NCBI RefSeq assembly: GCF_054482525.1
Contig: NZ_CM137006.1
Length of the DNA stretch: 64,000 bases
Strand: one strand, 5' to 3'
Shown here: one piece after another, positions 1 through 22,255 of the stretch
Position numbering within the stretch: the first letter of the stretch is position 1
Layout of the letters: the number at the start of each line of letters is the position of its first letter
Made by a program: the position numbers and the translations under genes
Notes under the pieces: generated by a model
What the model saw: the letters and a program-made list of their open reading frames with translations, nothing else
Database searches by the model: none
Told to the model about the DNA's origin: nothing

Positions 1-839
1 TGATCTTTGTTGGCCGGGTTCATTAAAATTCCCAGCAAATACAGCAACTCTTCTGCCGTACCCACACCGCCAGGGAAGATAATGATACCGTGAGCGATAC
101 GGACAAACGCTTCCAGACGTTTTTCGATATCTGGCATGATGATCAATTCGTTGACCAGCGGGTTAGGCGGTTCAGCGGCGATAATCGACGGCTCTGTCAT
201 ACCAATAAAACGACTGTCTTTGTAACGCTGCTGTGCGTGTCCGACCGCAGCGCCTTTCATCGGCGCTTCCATCGCTCCCGGACCACAGCCGGTGCAGATA
301 TTCAGCTCACGCAGGCCCAGCTGATTCCCGACGCGACGGGCATACAAATACTCGTTTTCGTTAATTGAGTGCCCGCCCCAGCAGACCACCATATTTGGCG
401 CTTCACCGACATGCAGTGCGCGAGCGTTACGCAAGATGGAAAAGACCAGGTTAGTGATGTGGACGGAGTTGTCGAGATTCAGGTTGGGAAAACGAACGGT
501 GTTATGGATTTGCCCGTAAACGAAGAGAATGTCACGCAGAACCGCGAACAAGTTGGCCTGCAAAGCGCGAATAATTCGCCCATCGACAAAAGCCTCTTCC
601 GGGGGATTAATCAGTTCCAGCTTTACGCCGCGTTCACGGCGCAGGACGTTAATATCGAAATTTTCAAAACGAGACAGCAATTCTTTGCTGTTATCGGTTA
701 AACTACCGGAGTTCAGTACGGCAAGTGAACAGTTGCGAAACAGTTGATAGAGGTCGCTGCTGGCGGTGCGTTTAAGCATATCCACTTCCAGCTGCGACAA
801 CATATCCATGGAGCCAAGCGGGCTAATATGTGTAATCAA
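1..839 (-). CDS. ppnN: Nucleotide 5'-monophosphate nucleosidase PpnN (YgdH), N-terminal 279 codons; gene runs off the window start
   Basis: Minus-strand frame translates [25 protein letters not shown]... from a TTG at 839-837, preceded by AAGGAG; recognised as PpnN/YgdH; sits downstream of queF as in K-12. Confidence 0.8.
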
Positions 840-950
840 GAAAAACTCCTTATGGGACGAATATCGTCATTCCCTTTGATTACAATAGCCCTGCCTGATG
901 ACCTTTCACAACCTTCTGCGTGAATCCAGCACGCAAAATTGAGAAAAAAT

Positions 951-1799
951 TTATTGCCGAACCAGTCTTGTGGTCGATGGGACAAAATCGCTATTACTGC
1001 GCCACGGGTTAATGTCCAGACCGCCACGACGGGTATAACGTGCGTAAACGCTCAATTTCTCTGGCTGGCAGAAGCGTAACAGGTCATTAAAGATGCGTTC
1101 CACGCACTGTTCGTGGAACTCGTTGTGATGACGGAAAGAAACCAGGTAACGCAGCAGTTTTTCTCTGTCAATTTGGCGTCCACGATACTGAATTTGGATC
1201 GATCCCCAATCTGGTTGATGGGTGATCAGGCAGTTTGATTTCAGCAGGTGGCTGACGAGCGTCTCTTCTACTACTTTTTCGCCACTGGTGGCATTCTCCA
1301 GATAGTCAGTAGTGAATTCATAGTTATCGATAGTGATATCCTGGTCATCAATGCAAGTGCCATTGAAATGACCTATCGGTTGGCCTTCCAGTTCATCAAG
1401 ACGATATAACGCCACGCTAACCTTACCCTGGGCGCAAGTGCTTAAGTCGCGCTCCAGCGTCTGGCGCACCTCATCCCAGTTATTAAAACGCGTCTGGTTA
1501 AAACTGTTGAGATAGAGCTTAAAACTCTTCGACTCAATCAGATTTGCGCTGGTGTAATCAAGTTCAACATGACCGACGGCGACCTGCGGCAAACCTTTCG
1601 CATTCAGCCAGGAAAGTTCATACAGCGTCCAGATATCCGTACCGTGAAAAGGCAGGTTATCCGCTTTCAGACCCAGCGGATCGCGATTCAGACTACGCGG
1701 AACGCCTTGCAGTAGGCTGGCGTCATAGGTATCCCGGTAATCGGTTGATTTTCCAAGAGTCAGGCCCGCAAGTGCCTGATGGTTTGCATAAGAAGACAT
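951..1799 (-). CDS. queF: NADPH-dependent 7-cyano-7-deazaguanine (preQ0) reductase QueF
   Basis: 282-aa [47 protein letters not shown]..., recognised as E. coli QueF. Confidence 0.93.
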
Positions 1800-1866
1800 G
1801 TTTCACCGTCATAAACCAGATAAACTAAACGACAAGTGTATCTGGTTTAAGTGAAGAGAGAAATTA

Positions 1867-2412
1867 GTGGACGATTTGACCGCACAAGCCCTGAAAGATT
1901 TTACTGCACGCTACTGCGATGCGTGGCATGAAGAGCATAAAAGCTGGCCGTTAAGTGAGGAACTGTACGGCGTTCCTTCACCGTGCATTATTTCAACCAC
2001 CGAAGATGCCGTATACTGGCAACCCCAGCCGTTTACCGGGGAACAAAATGTAAACGCGGTTGAACGCGCTTTTGATATTGTGATACAACCCACAATTCAT
2101 ACCTTTTATACGACTCAGTTTGCCGGGGATATGCATGCGCAGTTTGGCGATATCAAACTGACATTGCTACAAACCTGGAGTGAAGACGACTTCCGTCGGG
2201 TGCAGGAAAATCTGATTGGTCATCTGGTGACTCAGAAAAGGCTAAAATTGCCGCCCACGCTATTTATCGCGACGCTGGAAGAAGAGTTAGAGGTCATCTC
2301 GGTGTGTAATCTCTCCGGTGAAGTGTGTAAAGAGACGCTGGGAACACGTAAACGGGCGCATTTAGCCTCAAATCTTGCGGAATTCCTTAATCAACTTAAG
2401 CCTCTTCTGTAA
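1867..2412 (+). CDS. syd: SecY-interacting protein Syd
   Basis: 181-aa ORF (GTG start) [27 protein letters not shown]..., recognised as Syd; divergent from queF. Confidence 0.9.
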
Positions 2413-2431
2413 TCCAAATACCCCATCTGGT

Positions 2432-2449
2432 TGTGAGAGATCTCTTACA
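2432..2449. promoter_or_regulatory. 18-bp palindrome TGTGAGAGATCTCTTACA upstream of csrB; UvrY(SirA)-type binding box
   Basis: Perfect inverted repeat about 190 bp upstream of the csrB start; matches the UvrY/SirA box described for csrB promoters. Confidence 0.6.
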
Positions 2450-2623
2450 GACTCTGTAGGAGATCGCCAGGAAATAAGCGAATACTTAAAAAGATAAGAA
2501 TCGTTATTTTCATTTAAAATCAATATATTGCTTGTTAATCCTTAACTTTCATATGAAATTTTCCTTAAGGCATTGTCTGTAAGCGCCTTGTAAGACTTCG
2601 CGAAAAAGACGATTCTATCTTCG

Positions 2624-2989
2624 TCGACAGGGAGTCAGACAACGAAGTGAACATCAGGATGATGACACTTCTGAAGGACACACCAGGATGGTGTTTCAGG
2701 GAAAGGCTTCTGGATGAAGCGAAGAGGATGACGCAGGACGCGTTAAAGGACACCTCCAGGATGGAGAATGAGAACCGGTCAGGATGATTCGGTGGGTCAG
2801 GAAGGCCAGGGACACTTCAGGATGAAGTATCACATCGGGGTGGTGTGAGCAGGAAGCAATAGTTCAGGATGAACGATTGGCCGCAAGGCCAGAGGAAAAG
2901 TTGTCAAGGATGAGCAGGGAGCAACAAAAGTAGCTGGAATGCTGCGAAACGAACCGGGAGCACTGTGAATACAGTGCTCCCTTTTTTTA
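2624..2989 (+). ncRNA. csrB: CsrB small RNA (CsrA-sequestering decoy RNA)
   Basis: About 365 nt carrying around 20 CAGGA(U/A)G / GGA motifs (caggatg, aaggatg, ccaggatgg...), ending in a GC-rich hairpin ccgggagcactgtgaatacagtgctccc plus T7 at 2954-2988; lies between syd and yqcC as in K-12; 5' end approximate. Confidence 0.88.
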
Positions 2990-3033
2990 TTCCTGCTATC
3001 CTTCGCGGCAGTTTTTCTTATTGAGGTTGCTTT

Positions 3034-3363
3034 ATGACCACTCATGACCGCGTTCGTCTCCAGTTGCAGGCGCTTGAAGCGTTACTGCGTGAACATCAGC
3101 ACTGGCGAAACGATGAACCCCAGCCGCATCAATTTAACAGTACCCAACCGTTCTTTATGGACACCATGGAACCACTGGAGTGGTTGCAGTGGGTGCTTAT
3201 TCCGCGAATGCACGATTTGTTAGATAACAACCAGCCGTTACCGGGCGCTTTTGCCGTTGCTCCCTATTATGAAATGGCGCTGGCGACGGACCATCCGCAA
3301 CGCGCGCTTATTCTGGCTGAGCTGGAAAAACTGGATGCTCTTTTTGCGGATGATGCGAGCTAA
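3034..3363 (+). CDS. yqcC: DUF446-family protein YqcC
   Basis: 109-aa ORF MTTHDRVRLQLQALEALLREHQHWRNDEPQP..., immediately upstream of truC. Confidence 0.85.
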   Translation: MTTHDRVRLQLQALEALLREHQHWRNDEPQPHQFNSTQPFFMDTMEPLEWLQWVLIPRMHDLLDNNQPLPGAFAVAPYYEMALATDHPQRALILAELEKLDALFADDAS

Positions 3364-4145
3364 TGCTGGAAATACTCTATCAGGATGAATGGCTGGTTGC
3401 GGTAAATAAACCCTCCGGCTGGCTGGTTCACCGCAGCTGGCTGGATCGCGACGAGAAAGTAGTGGTCATGCAAACCGTGCGTGACCAGATAGGACAGCAT
3501 GTTTTTACTGCTCATCGTCTGGACCGACCCACTTCTGGTGTGTTGTTGATGGGATTATCCAGCGAGGCCGGACGGCTGCTGGCACAACAGTTTGAACAGC
3601 ACCAAATCCAGAAACGTTACCATGCGATTGTGCGCGGCTGGTTGATGGAAGAAGCGGTGCTGGATTATCCACTGGTGGAAGAACTGGACAAAATCGCTGA
3701 TAAATTTGCCCGCGAAGATAAAGGCCCGCAGCCAGCAGTGACGCATTACCGCGGTCTGGCGACCGTAGAAATGCCGGTAGCGACCGGACGTTACCCGACC
3801 ACGCGCTACGGCCTGGTGGAACTGGAGCCGAAAACCGGACGCAAACATCAGCTTCGCCGACATCTTGCCCATTTGCGCCACCCGATTATTGGCGATAGCA
3901 AACATGGCGATTTACGCCAGAATCGCAGCGGTGCTGAACATTTTGGTCTTCAGCGGTTAATGCTGCATGCCAGTCAGTTGTCATTGACGCATCCTTTTAC
4001 TGGCGAGCCGCTGACTATTCACGCGGGCCTGGACGACACCTGGATGCAGGCGTTATCACAATTTGGCTGGCGCGGTCTGCTTCCTGAAAATGAAAGGGTT
4101 GAGTTCAGTGCGCCATCGGGTCAGGATGGAGAGATAAGTTCCTAA
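3363..4145 (+). CDS. truC: tRNA pseudouridine(65) synthase TruC
   Basis: 260-aa [35 protein letters not shown]... with RluA-family motif [12 protein letters not shown]. Confidence 0.9.
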
Positions 4146-18554: not shown

Positions 18555-19868
<1,314 letters not shown>

Positions 19869-19927: not shown

Positions 19928-20800
19928 TTACCAGCGACCGGACGCGCCGCCACCGCCAGAAGAACCGCCACCACCGCTAAATCCGCCGCCACTTGAGCCG
20001 CCACCGGAACCGCTGTTGTCTGAATGATAACTTCTACCAGATGCTTTTTTCTGAAGTACACATAAACAGGTAAAGACCATAATGGTGGTGAAAGTAAAAA
20101 AGAAGAAAAATACAGCAATGGAAAAAGTTTTATCGGAGAACAGGAATAAATCTAAAAGATAGATTGCTGAAATACAGACACTGCTTTTACATGCGCGACA
20201 AAAATTACTGCCTTGATGAAAAAACCAGAAAGGGAAGAACATCACTGCAAATACCCAAAAAATAGCAAAGTAGTAATGATCGCTGGAAGACGCTGATTCA
20301 CTTTCTGAAGGATTAGCCGAATATTGGTGTTGTGAAGTGAGTTGGTTATTCAAAGCGATTATAGCTAACTCTAATCCCTTAGCTAATTTTTGTTGTTTAA
20401 ATGCGGGTATCATGTTGCTACGGATGATATCTCCAGCCAGAGCATCGGTTACCTTTTCTTCCAGCCCATAACCTACCTGGATGCGGACAGTGCGATCCGA
20501 CCAGGCAACAATGATCAGTATCCCATCATTGCGTTTGGCATCTCCTAAACGCCAATTGTTAAAAACCCTTGTAGCATATTGTTCAATTGTCTCGTCTTTG
20601 GTTGTGGGAATAATTAATACAGCAATTTGTACTTGGGTATTATTGAAAATAGATTCTAACTTGTACGTCAGTTCTTTCTTTTCTTGTGAGTTTAAGCTAC
20701 TCGTAAGATCCGTAACTTGTTGCTGTAATTGTGGGACAATAGTTGGTTGGGCTGCAACAAAGGAACACACGAATGTGAATATTAGTATGAAATAGCGCAT
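19928..20800 (-). CDS. ygcG: TPM-domain membrane protein YgcG with C-terminal Gly/Ser-rich tail
   Basis: [29 protein letters not shown]... ending ...[27 protein letters not shown]; start taken at the MRYF codon (290 aa) although the track ORF extends to 20845. Confidence 0.8.
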
Positions 20801-21093
20801 TATAAATGTCTCATTAAATCTGGATAAATAAATTGACGGCGGCATCGGTAATTTGAGATTCGTTATAATTAAAAACGAACACAGAAAAAATAAGTATAAT
20901 TTTGGTGAATGTTTTTGACATGATTAAATCCCTTTACTTTATTTATTTCTGACATAATACGTTACCCCCTTTTATTATTAACGATCTGTTTCTCATTTTT
21001 CTTTAAACCTGCCTGTAACAGAATGTTAATAAGACATGATTGTTGTGGCAGGATCTGCAATAATTAACAATTATCCACTTCACAGAGAATGCT

Positions 21094-21765
21094 ATGCAGT
21101 ACCCGATTAACGAGATGTTCCAGACCCTGCAAGGTGAGGGTTACTTTACCGGCGTCCCCGCCATTTTTATTCGTTTACAGGGATGCCCGGTTGGCTGTGC
21201 CTGGTGCGACACCAAACACACCTGGGAAAAGCTTGAGGATCGGGAAGTTTCCCTTTTCAGCATTCTGGGTAAAACGAAAGAGAGTGATAAGTGGGGAGCA
21301 GCAAGCAGTGAAGACTTACTCGCAGTCATCGGTCGTCAGGGATACACCGCGCGTCACGTGGTGATTACGGGTGGTGAACCTTGTATTCATGATTTGCTGC
21401 CACTGACTGACCTGCTCGAAAAGAACGGTTTCAGTTGTCAGATAGAAACCAGCGGTACTCATGAAGTGCGTTGTACGCCGAATACCTGGGTCACCGTGTC
21501 GCCAAAGCTAAATATGCGTGGTGGTTATGAAGTATTGTCGCAAGCCCTGGAGCGAGCTAACGAAATTAAACACCCAGTTGGACGTGTACGTGATATCGAA
21601 GCACTGGATGAATTGCTTGCGACGCTGACCGATGATAAACCGCGAGTCATTGCACTGCAGCCGATTAGCCAAAAGGATGATGCCACACGTTTGTGCATTG
21701 AAACTTGCATTGCGCGTAACTGGCGTTTGTCGATGCAAACACATAAATATTTAAATATTGCCTGA
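21094..21765 (+). CDS. queE: 7-carboxy-7-deazaguanine synthase QueE (radical SAM)
   Basis: 223-aa ORF MQYPINEMFQTLQGEGYFTGVPAIFIRLQGCPVGCAWCDTKHTW... with the CxxxCxxC radical-SAM-like cluster. Confidence 0.93.
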   Translation: MQYPINEMFQTLQGEGYFTGVPAIFIRLQGCPVGCAWCDTKHTWEKLEDREVSLFSILGKTKESDKWGAASSEDLLAVIGRQGYTARHVVITGGEPCIHDLLPLTDLLEKNGFSCQIETSGTHEVRCTPNTWVTVSPKLNMRGGYEVLSQALERANEIKHPVGRVRDIEALDELLATLTDDKPRVIALQPISQKDDATRLCIETCIARNWRLSMQTHKYLNIA

Positions 21766-22104: not shown

Positions 22105-22255
22105 GAGTTCCCCGCGCGAGCGGGGATAAACCGAAAACCACGACCTGGCGATCGGCGTGCTGGATGAGTTTCCCGCGCGAGCGGGGATAAACCGGATAGG
22201 TGTTACACATATGACCAGGCACTGGCGAGTTCCCCGCGTCAGCGGGGATAACCAT
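22105..22255 (+). CRISPR. Short type I-E CRISPR array: 3 repeats (third degenerate), 2 spacers of 32 bp
   Basis: 29-bp repeats gagttccccgcgcgagcggggataaaccg (22105-22133), gagtttcccgcgcgagcggggataaaccg (22166-22194), degenerate gagttccccgcgtcagcggggataaccat (22227-22255); spacers aaaaccacgacctggcgatcggcgtgctggat and gataggtgttacacatatgaccaggcactggc; no cas genes in the window. Confidence 0.85.

Follow-up and report, generated by a model that had tools for sequence, protein, structure and literature searches.

A catalogued small open reading frame between queE and ygcG of Escherichia coli is probably a remnant of lemA

Introduction

What is the 35-codon open reading frame (ORF) that ends directly in front of ygcG in Escherichia coli, and does its product or merely its position matter? 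In the stretch of DNA analysed here (64,000 nucleotides, hereafter the window) this ORF lies on the minus strand, opens with ATG at 20921-20919 and closes with TAA at 20816-20814, so that the gap 20813-20801 separates it from the ygcG start codon at 20800 (Table 1). Coordinates, reading frame, the AAGGGA upstream of the start and the 13-nt distance were all confirmed in the ORF listing of the region, as claimed by the original prediction, in which the ORF was regarded as unannotated, hydrophobic and possibly encoding a small membrane protein or a leader peptide translationally coupled to ygcG. The adjacency to ygcG and the hydrophobic core of the product stand; the novelty does not.

The spacer between queE and ygcG is 293 nt long with 30% GC, and in K-12 it has been described as an H-NS-bound region with divergent sigma-70 promoters (PMC3946193), as a 338-bp "promoter island" (PMC3661553) and as a sigma-S site detected by ChIP-seq and SELEX (PMC4447067, PMC5493296). 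Deletion of yqcG, the small gene located there, was reported to increase queE expression, the DNA is bound by PhoP-P (PMC4974570), and transposon insertions are sparse at the yqcG spacer (PMC5821084). Here the identity, the descent and the possible role of the 35-codon ORF are considered in turn.

Table 1. Features of the queE-ygcG region in the window
Feature	Position	Strand	Remark
eno	18570..19868	+	neighbour
ygcG	19928..20800	-	TPM-domain protein, 290 aa
AT-rich diverged block	20626..21003	.	27-40% GC; contains the stub
Spacer between ORF stop and ygcG	20801..20813	-	13 nt, ygcG ATG at 20800; without usable Shine-Dalgarno
35-codon ORF	20814..20921	-	probable 5' stub of lemA with the ancestral lemA start codon; corresponds to the C-terminal 33 codons of yqcG plus Met-Ser
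yqcG locus per RefSeq/PGAP	20814..20955	-	annotated in PCN033 as "hypothetical protein, frameshifted"; 142 nt long (intact yqcG: 141 nt)
28-codon ORF	20869..20955	-	opens at the start codon of K-12 yqcG; the rest of yqcG is in another frame here
A5 run	20912..20916	-	A4 in K-12/B/O103 alleles, from the alignment
AAGGGA Shine-Dalgarno	20929..20934	-	7 nt 5' of ATG 20921; homologous to the lemA Shine-Dalgarno
AAAGGGGG Shine-Dalgarno for ATG 20955	20965..20972	-	-12.0 kcal/mol; absent from lemA-type loci
queE	21094..21765	+	divergently transcribed; promoter motif TTTAAA-17-GTTAAT starts at 21002 (+)

Results

Identity with yqcG

The locus, which was thought to be unannotated, is that of the known small gene yqcG. 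A 501-nt query from the window had matches in 5421 of 5426 complete E. coli genomes, with 100% identity in PCN033, and RefSeq flags the yqcG locus as "frameshifted" in PCN033, EC958 and N3. The exact 35-aa product has been deposited in GenBank as AKK49525.1 (PPECC33_03001, E. coli PCN033) and occurs on 305 contigs; the same sequence is elsewhere named "small protein involved in the cell envelope stress response", and near-identical 35-aa variants are found on at least 1000 contigs. The status of a new small ORF was rejected on these grounds: the 35-codon ORF represents a yqcG allele that had been catalogued before, at an ordinary locus.

In the alignment with K-12 yqcG the window has one extra A (A5 in place of A4) plus single-nucleotide polymorphisms (SNPs), and it is this base that sets which start codon reaches the shared 33 codons, ATG 20921 with A5 and ATG 20955 with A4. 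Over these codons the product is identical to residues 14-46 of K-12/B YqcG at 28 of 33 positions (85%), and the ATG that supplies the initial Met-Ser of the 35-aa ORF does not lie in the K-12 frame (CAT GTC). The 46-codon frame that begins at the K-12 yqcG start is broken in the window by A5, with 28 codons left, and the N-terminal 13 residues of YqcG are not common to the A5 and A4 allele classes. When the 46-aa YqcG was used as a query, all protein relatives belonged to E. coli or Shigella; Pfam and NCBIfam held no family for the 35-, 46- or 28-aa products. The 46-aa YqcG of K-12 has been reported as a real protein, as far as the citing text conveys it (ref. 52 cited in PMC5821084).

Descent from lemA

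In about a quarter of E. coli genomes queE is followed by genes for a LemA family protein and two TPM proteins. A scan of species-representative genomes for QueE, together with tblastn, revealed the order queE, lemA-TPM-TPM-TPM, eno in E. albertii, E. whittamii and SCPM-O-B-8794, and neither lemA nor the stub in most other Enterobacteriaceae; the Escherichia outgroups sampled were E. albertii and E. whittamii. The lemA start codon of E. coli HR5-1, SCPM-O-B-8794, E. albertii and E. whittamii aligns exactly with ATG 20921, and the GGATTTAA-CATG context as well as the AAGGGA/AAAGGA Shine-Dalgarno is conserved both at the lemA starts and at ATG 20921. From this ATG the window and lemA can be aligned ungapped and in frame for about 93 nt (the first 31 codons), where 53-56 of 93 nucleotides match (z about 6), as compared with 39-42 at the best of all other offsets within 4 kb; nt 36-93, the second half, are similar by themselves at P<0.001. 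At the protein level 11-12 of 31 residues are identical between the stub and the LemA N-terminal sequence (MLRIFIVIIFIFNLSGCGYNDIQTYDEQVNA), again in the same frame and with no gaps.

The start codon, the Shine-Dalgarno and the N-terminal signal region of lemA are found at the site, and the LemA domain (PF04011), which in Pfam covers residues 32-193 of LemA, occurs in neither the 35-aa nor the 46-aa product. On these alignments the homology shows descent from lemA, not membership of the LemA family, and the 35-codon ORF is very likely a relic, the decayed 5' stub, of lemA. The frame, the conservation of which was named as a check with the original prediction, is common to the A5 haplotypes and the lemA starts; no protein relative of YqcG came from outside E. 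coli and Shigella. The right-hand deletion junction could not be traced, as lemA-type loci offer no close DNA counterpart to window 20886-20626, and the ORF stop, the 13-nt spacer and the 5' end of ygcG showed no convincing homology to the lemA/TPM1 or the TPM3/TPM4 junction.

The ancestral Escherichia state between queE and eno is a lemA-TPM-TPM(-TPM) operon, and in yqcG-type E. coli all sequence between about codon 31 of lemA and the last TPM gene (ygcG) is gone. What is left over is the lemA Shine-Dalgarno, its start and about 30 signal-peptide and linker codons; 5 more codons and a stop come after them, 13 nt before ygcG. In the window, with its A5 run, the stub keeps the ATG of lemA as its start and is still in the lemA frame.

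Polarity and distribution of the alleles

The distance from the ATG to a conserved TTC codon is 9 nt in all four Escherichia lemA genes and in the A5 alleles, and 8 nt in K-12. Because the A5 register is common to all lemA outgroups examined, we infer by parsimony that the register of the window is ancestral and that the K-12 A4 form is derived by a 1-nt deletion. In the ygcG tree A5 and A4 haplotypes are sister clades, so that the polarity is taken from the outgroup lemA register only and an A4 ancestor followed by re-insertion would cost no more than one additional step. In A4 strains the loss of one A would have taken the lemA ATG out of the frame of the stub and joined to the latter 13 former 5'-UTR codons that begin at an upstream ATG, giving the 46-aa YqcG. 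The 13 N-terminal residues of YqcG stem from the former lemA 5'-UTR, because in lemA-type loci the equivalent of ATG 20955 is without a Shine-Dalgarno (-2.4 kcal/mol) and meets a stop after 2 codons.

The alleles were counted in the 5426 complete genomes with exact 30-mers that span the Shine-Dalgarno SNP and the A-run. A5 with AAGGGA, the state of the window and of ST131 EC958, is present in 1059 genomes, and A4 with AATGGA, the state of K-12, B and O103, in 2692; A5 with AATGGA, a mosaic haplotype exemplified by N3, is found in 48 and A4 with AAGGGA in a single genome (FCI1), and full-length lemA is carried by 1455, including O157:H7 and Nissle 1917, the five states together accounting for 5255 of 5426. 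AAGGGA is thus nearly confined to alleles in which the lemA ATG is in frame (1059 A5 against 1 A4). A5 as such occurs in more than 1100 genomes and in at least two haplotypes, which differ at 7 of 105 nt and both contain the same 35-codon ORF.

Some of the rare forms call for comment. The N3 type (A5, AATGGA) was considered as an evolutionary intermediate and rejected, since it combines a window-like ygcG with a K-12-like 5' part, as recombinant mosaics do. The ygcG of FCI1 equals that of the window in codons 59-165 and has 3 differences in codons 1-58; its combination of A4 and AAGGGA reflects a recent slip or else an error in sequencing the homopolymer. A protein (P0057) that joins MLRIFIVIIFIF to the YqcG C-terminus was likewise rejected as a natural lemA/yqcG recombinant, as its only source is CP092814, where Ns fall on precisely this stretch and the neighbouring genes are fragmented, and it is probably a reference-guided assembly chimera.

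Translation signals

The length of the 35-codon ORF by itself is not beyond chance, as an ATG-initiated ORF of at least 35 codons was present on the same strand in 12% of 5000 shuffled queE-ygcG spacers (P=0.12). The Shine-Dalgarno of ATG 20921 pairs with the anti-Shine-Dalgarno at -5.1 kcal/mol, a value matched by 12% of random positions; at this lemA ATG position it is -5.1 kcal/mol in the window, in EC958 and in functional lemA, and -3.1 kcal/mol in K-12 and N3. Some translation from ATG 20921 is somewhat more likely than not.

The 35-codon ORF is overlapped by a 28-codon ORF, which was not mentioned in the original prediction and which starts at ATG 20955. The Shine-Dalgarno of ATG 20955 was equalled by none of 3000 random positions. 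In each of the three A5 haplotypes this ORF has 28 codons; it stops 69 nt before ygcG, and its exact 28-aa sequence is absent from a collection of 15 billion proteins. Ribosomes that translate it would cross ATG 20921 and would weaken both the translation of the 35-aa product and any coupling to ygcG.

At window 20954-20962 on the minus strand lies the 9-mer GTATTATGT, which is invariant in yqcG-type and lemA-type loci of three Escherichia species, with flanks that are 30-45% diverged. It contains a -10-like TATTAT (20959-20954) overlapping the K-12 yqcG start codon, and this TATTAT may be the -10 element of an ancestral lemA promoter.

The peptide and selection

The hydrophobic core of the 35-aa product is real, and its longest apolar run, flanked by K and N, has 10 residues; a membrane-spanning segment takes about 18-20. 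The run derives from the lipoprotein signal peptide of LemA without its lipobox cysteine, and because of its origin and its length the product is a weak candidate for the small membrane protein that was envisaged.

Synonymous-substitution analysis, another check named with the original prediction, gave no sign of constraint. In Nei-Gojobori comparisons of the window, EC958, K-12, O103 and FCI1 alleles over the 33 shared codons, dN/dS was 0.5-2.3, thus about 1, with pN of 0.07-0.12, values that come from small counts with 1-2 synonymous changes per comparison; the adjacent ygcG (165 codons) has dN/dS of about 0.3. In the 13 upstream yqcG codons 4 of 4 differences are non-synonymous. The openness of the frame is no evidence of selection either, because only 3.6% of possible substitutions create a stop, and after 10-25 substitutions the frame would be expected to stay open in 40-70% of cases. 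The peptide sequence is without detectable constraint, and a sequence-specific function of the peptide seems improbable.

Coupling to ygcG

The Shine-Dalgarno of the ygcG ATG has a pairing energy of -2.7 kcal/mol, which is reached by 43% of random positions and so is background. The abutting fourth TPM gene of SCPM-O-B-8794 is similar in this respect (-2.8 kcal/mol), and ygcG looks like an operon-internal gene relying on upstream translation. Translational coupling of the 35-codon ORF to ygcG is plausible because ygcG is essentially without a Shine-Dalgarno of its own, and in the window strain the 35-codon ORF is the sole ORF that ends close to ygcG. That such coupling matters for ygcG can be put forward only tentatively. 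A leader peptide in the attenuation sense, the other role suggested for the ORF, finds no counterpart in the DNA: there were no terminator-like sites in the ORF/ygcG region, RNA folding of the region was not significant (z = 0.76), and Rfam gave no match at E <=1.

The surrounding block and neighbouring genes

The stub lies in an AT-rich block with abrupt borders. Identity to lemA-type loci is 99/100 over 21110-21011, falls to 55-75% from about 21003, where the break coincides with the -35 of the published queE promoter (PMC3946193), and returns to about 95% at 20625, inside ygcG; the block roughly coincides with the H-NS "promoter island" of K-12 (PMC3661553, PMC3946193). Because the boundary is abrupt, an old or imported allele bounded by recombination is suggested rather than decay in place, and with 30-45% divergence from the lemA type the block may have been imported already truncated. 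The stub DNA is also part of the divergent queE control region bound by H-NS, PhoP and sigma-S.

The mosaic structure extends into ygcG, in which codons 1-58 are about 40% identical to any TPM paralogue and the part from about codon 59-60 onward matches the fourth TPM gene of lemA-type loci at 95-100% identity; the fourth and last TPM gene of SCPM-O-B-8794 is the ygcG orthologue, with 81% identity overall. The glycine-rich C-terminal tail of ygcG has 80-88% DNA identity among all TPM paralogues, which suggests gene conversion. At the SCPM-O-B-8794 locus (L005, reverse complement of 1-4100, positions 1782-3559) the N-termini encoded by TPM genes three and four are nearly identical (MRLIFILLALWCLPGLAQQIAVPELRQQ...), and this points to a tandem duplication or a gene conversion that took place recently in the operon. 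In E. coli O103 ML775 (L087, positions 734-1228) ygcG is annotated as a pseudogene with an internal stop and the K-12-type yqcG is intact, which implies that ygcG is dispensable in at least some strains.

On the other side, queE is followed by ygcE, and the interval between them contains three 29-nt direct repeats (GAGTTCCCCGCGCGAGCGGGGATAAACCG) with 61-nt spacing at window 22105-22255 (+). These repeats form a short CRISPR array such as is typical of E. coli; a longer annotated CRISPR is present at the same place in other strains (L002, L003).

Discussion

The reading that we favour, with a probability of roughly 0.8, is that the 35-codon ORF is a lemA stub and an allele of yqcG, that the window retains the ancestral frame and that the stub has at most a positional role. 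The opposite direction is implied by the PGAP annotation, according to which the A-run of a 46-aa yqcG gained one base (+1) and the gene was thereby inactivated, with the 35-codon ORF as a by-product that is not translated. The "frameshifted" flag in three strains, the report of the 46-aa K-12 form (and not of the shorter one) as a real protein and the fact that the strong upstream Shine-Dalgarno serves ATG 20955, not 20921, agree with such a plain pseudogene; yet the A5 register is shared with every lemA outgroup, A5 is tightly linked to the intact lemA-type Shine-Dalgarno, and more than 1100 A5 genomes with at least two haplotypes have the same 35-codon ORF, which makes this account unlikely. 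Little probability is likewise given to the idea that the 28-aa ORF is the product really translated and that its ribosomes occlude the 35-codon ORF. It draws on the difference between the two Shine-Dalgarno sequences (-12.0 against -5.1 kcal/mol), the former beyond all 3000 random positions, and on the 28 codons being kept in the three A5 haplotypes; against it stand the absence of the exact sequence from the protein collection and the possibility that, if the TATTAT of GTATTATGT is the ancestral lemA -10, ATG 20955 would be off that transcript, as far as can be read from the DNA.

One may also ask if the ORF encodes a functional small membrane or stress protein, i.e., a short YqcG isoform that forms an inner-membrane helix and takes part in the envelope-stress response. 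Database names ("small protein involved in the cell envelope stress response", "membrane stress resistance protein"), the frame that is open in all A5 haplotypes seen and the sigma-S ChIP/SELEX signal of the spacer speak for it, and K-12 YqcG is reportedly induced by envelope stress. However, dN/dS is about 1 or higher, openness of the frame is uninformative, the two allele classes do not have the N-terminal 13 residues in common, the apolar run resembles that of a signal peptide and does not reach the length of a standard transmembrane helix, neither Pfam nor NCBIfam has a family for the product, the relatives are confined to E. coli and Shigella, and the stub is absent altogether from the 1455 genomes with full-length lemA; a stress protein is quite unlikely for these reasons. 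Recoding, in which +1 ribosomal (or transcriptional) slippage on GTC-AAA-AAC restores a 46-aa YqcG-like protein, would have the merit that a +1 slip of tRNA-Lys on A5 gives exactly the K-12 frame, but the run has only five A's with no slow codon or stop in the A site, AAGGGA located 12 nt upstream has the wrong spacing for +1 stimulation and no structured RNA follows downstream, so that it is highly improbable. A chance ORF in an AT-rich spacer, for which the result with the shuffled spacers could be quoted, is effectively refuted, because the ORF has in-register homology to lemA (z about 6) and 85% amino acid identity to yqcG.

If the ORF is a lemA stub, any role of it would most likely be positional and not exerted by the peptide sequence. 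Ribosomes loaded at the retained lemA start would stop 13 nt before ygcG and would aid its translation, just as in the intact operon the upstream members would help the translation of the next gene. A series may be proposed from intact lemA (1455 genomes and the outgroups) through the stub with the lemA start (about 1100) to the K-12 type (about 2700), created by a 1-nt deletion through which 13 former 5'-UTR codons with a new and strong Shine-Dalgarno were recruited, and the K-12 frameshift would have moved the coupling ORF onto a stronger ribosome-binding site. The full version of this idea, that K-12 YqcG was born from the wreckage of lemA, that the window shows the prior stage and that selection keeps an ORF ending near ygcG and not the peptide, is rather doubtful.

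Three points are new here: yqcG is a stub of lemA, the window has the ancestral frame, and the K-12 YqcG is probably derived. The RefSeq label of a frameshifted pseudogene is anchored on K-12, and the evolutionary direction that it implies is probably inverted. YqcG, a textbook-listed small protein, appears to go back to the signal-peptide stub that a deleted lemA left behind and to evolve with its sequence unconstrained, and this calls for caution, as detection of a small protein is not equal to function. Three states co-exist in one species, namely the intact operon, the stub in the ancestral frame and the stub with a recruited 5'-UTR, which would make the locus a convenient natural system for the retention or co-option of remnant ORFs, e.g., as a coupling device for a gene devoid of a Shine-Dalgarno. 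The locus itself is ordinary; its evolutionary history is modestly interesting.

Comparison with known systems places the ORF among its relatives. The LemA (PF04011) operons of O157:H7, Nissle 1917, E. albertii and E. whittamii occupy the same queE-adjacent site as the stub, with a homologous Shine-Dalgarno, start codon, frame and first ~30 codons, and in both cases a TPM-domain gene follows after 13 nt; in contrast to LemA, the stub has lost the lipobox cysteine (LSGC in LemA, VFVF in the window) and misses the entire LemA domain. K-12 YqcG (b4682, "cell envelope stress response protein YqcG", 46 aa) has the same locus, strand and stop 13 nt before ygcG, whereas the window product lacks the 13 N-terminal YqcG residues, begins at another ATG and is 35 aa long; the window retains the lemA-type AAGGGA, which K-12 has lost (AATGGA). 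Attenuation leaders such as trpL and pheL also are small ORFs directly 5' of a gene, but they possess terminator/antiterminator structures, a regulatory codon run and an Rfam leader match that the window does not have. Translationally coupled cistrons that work by termination-reinitiation differ from the window in that they have an RNA structure occluding the ribosome-binding site for upstream translation to melt (z = 0.76 in the window); they share with it the short distance from stop to start, 13 nt in this case, and a downstream gene without a Shine-Dalgarno.
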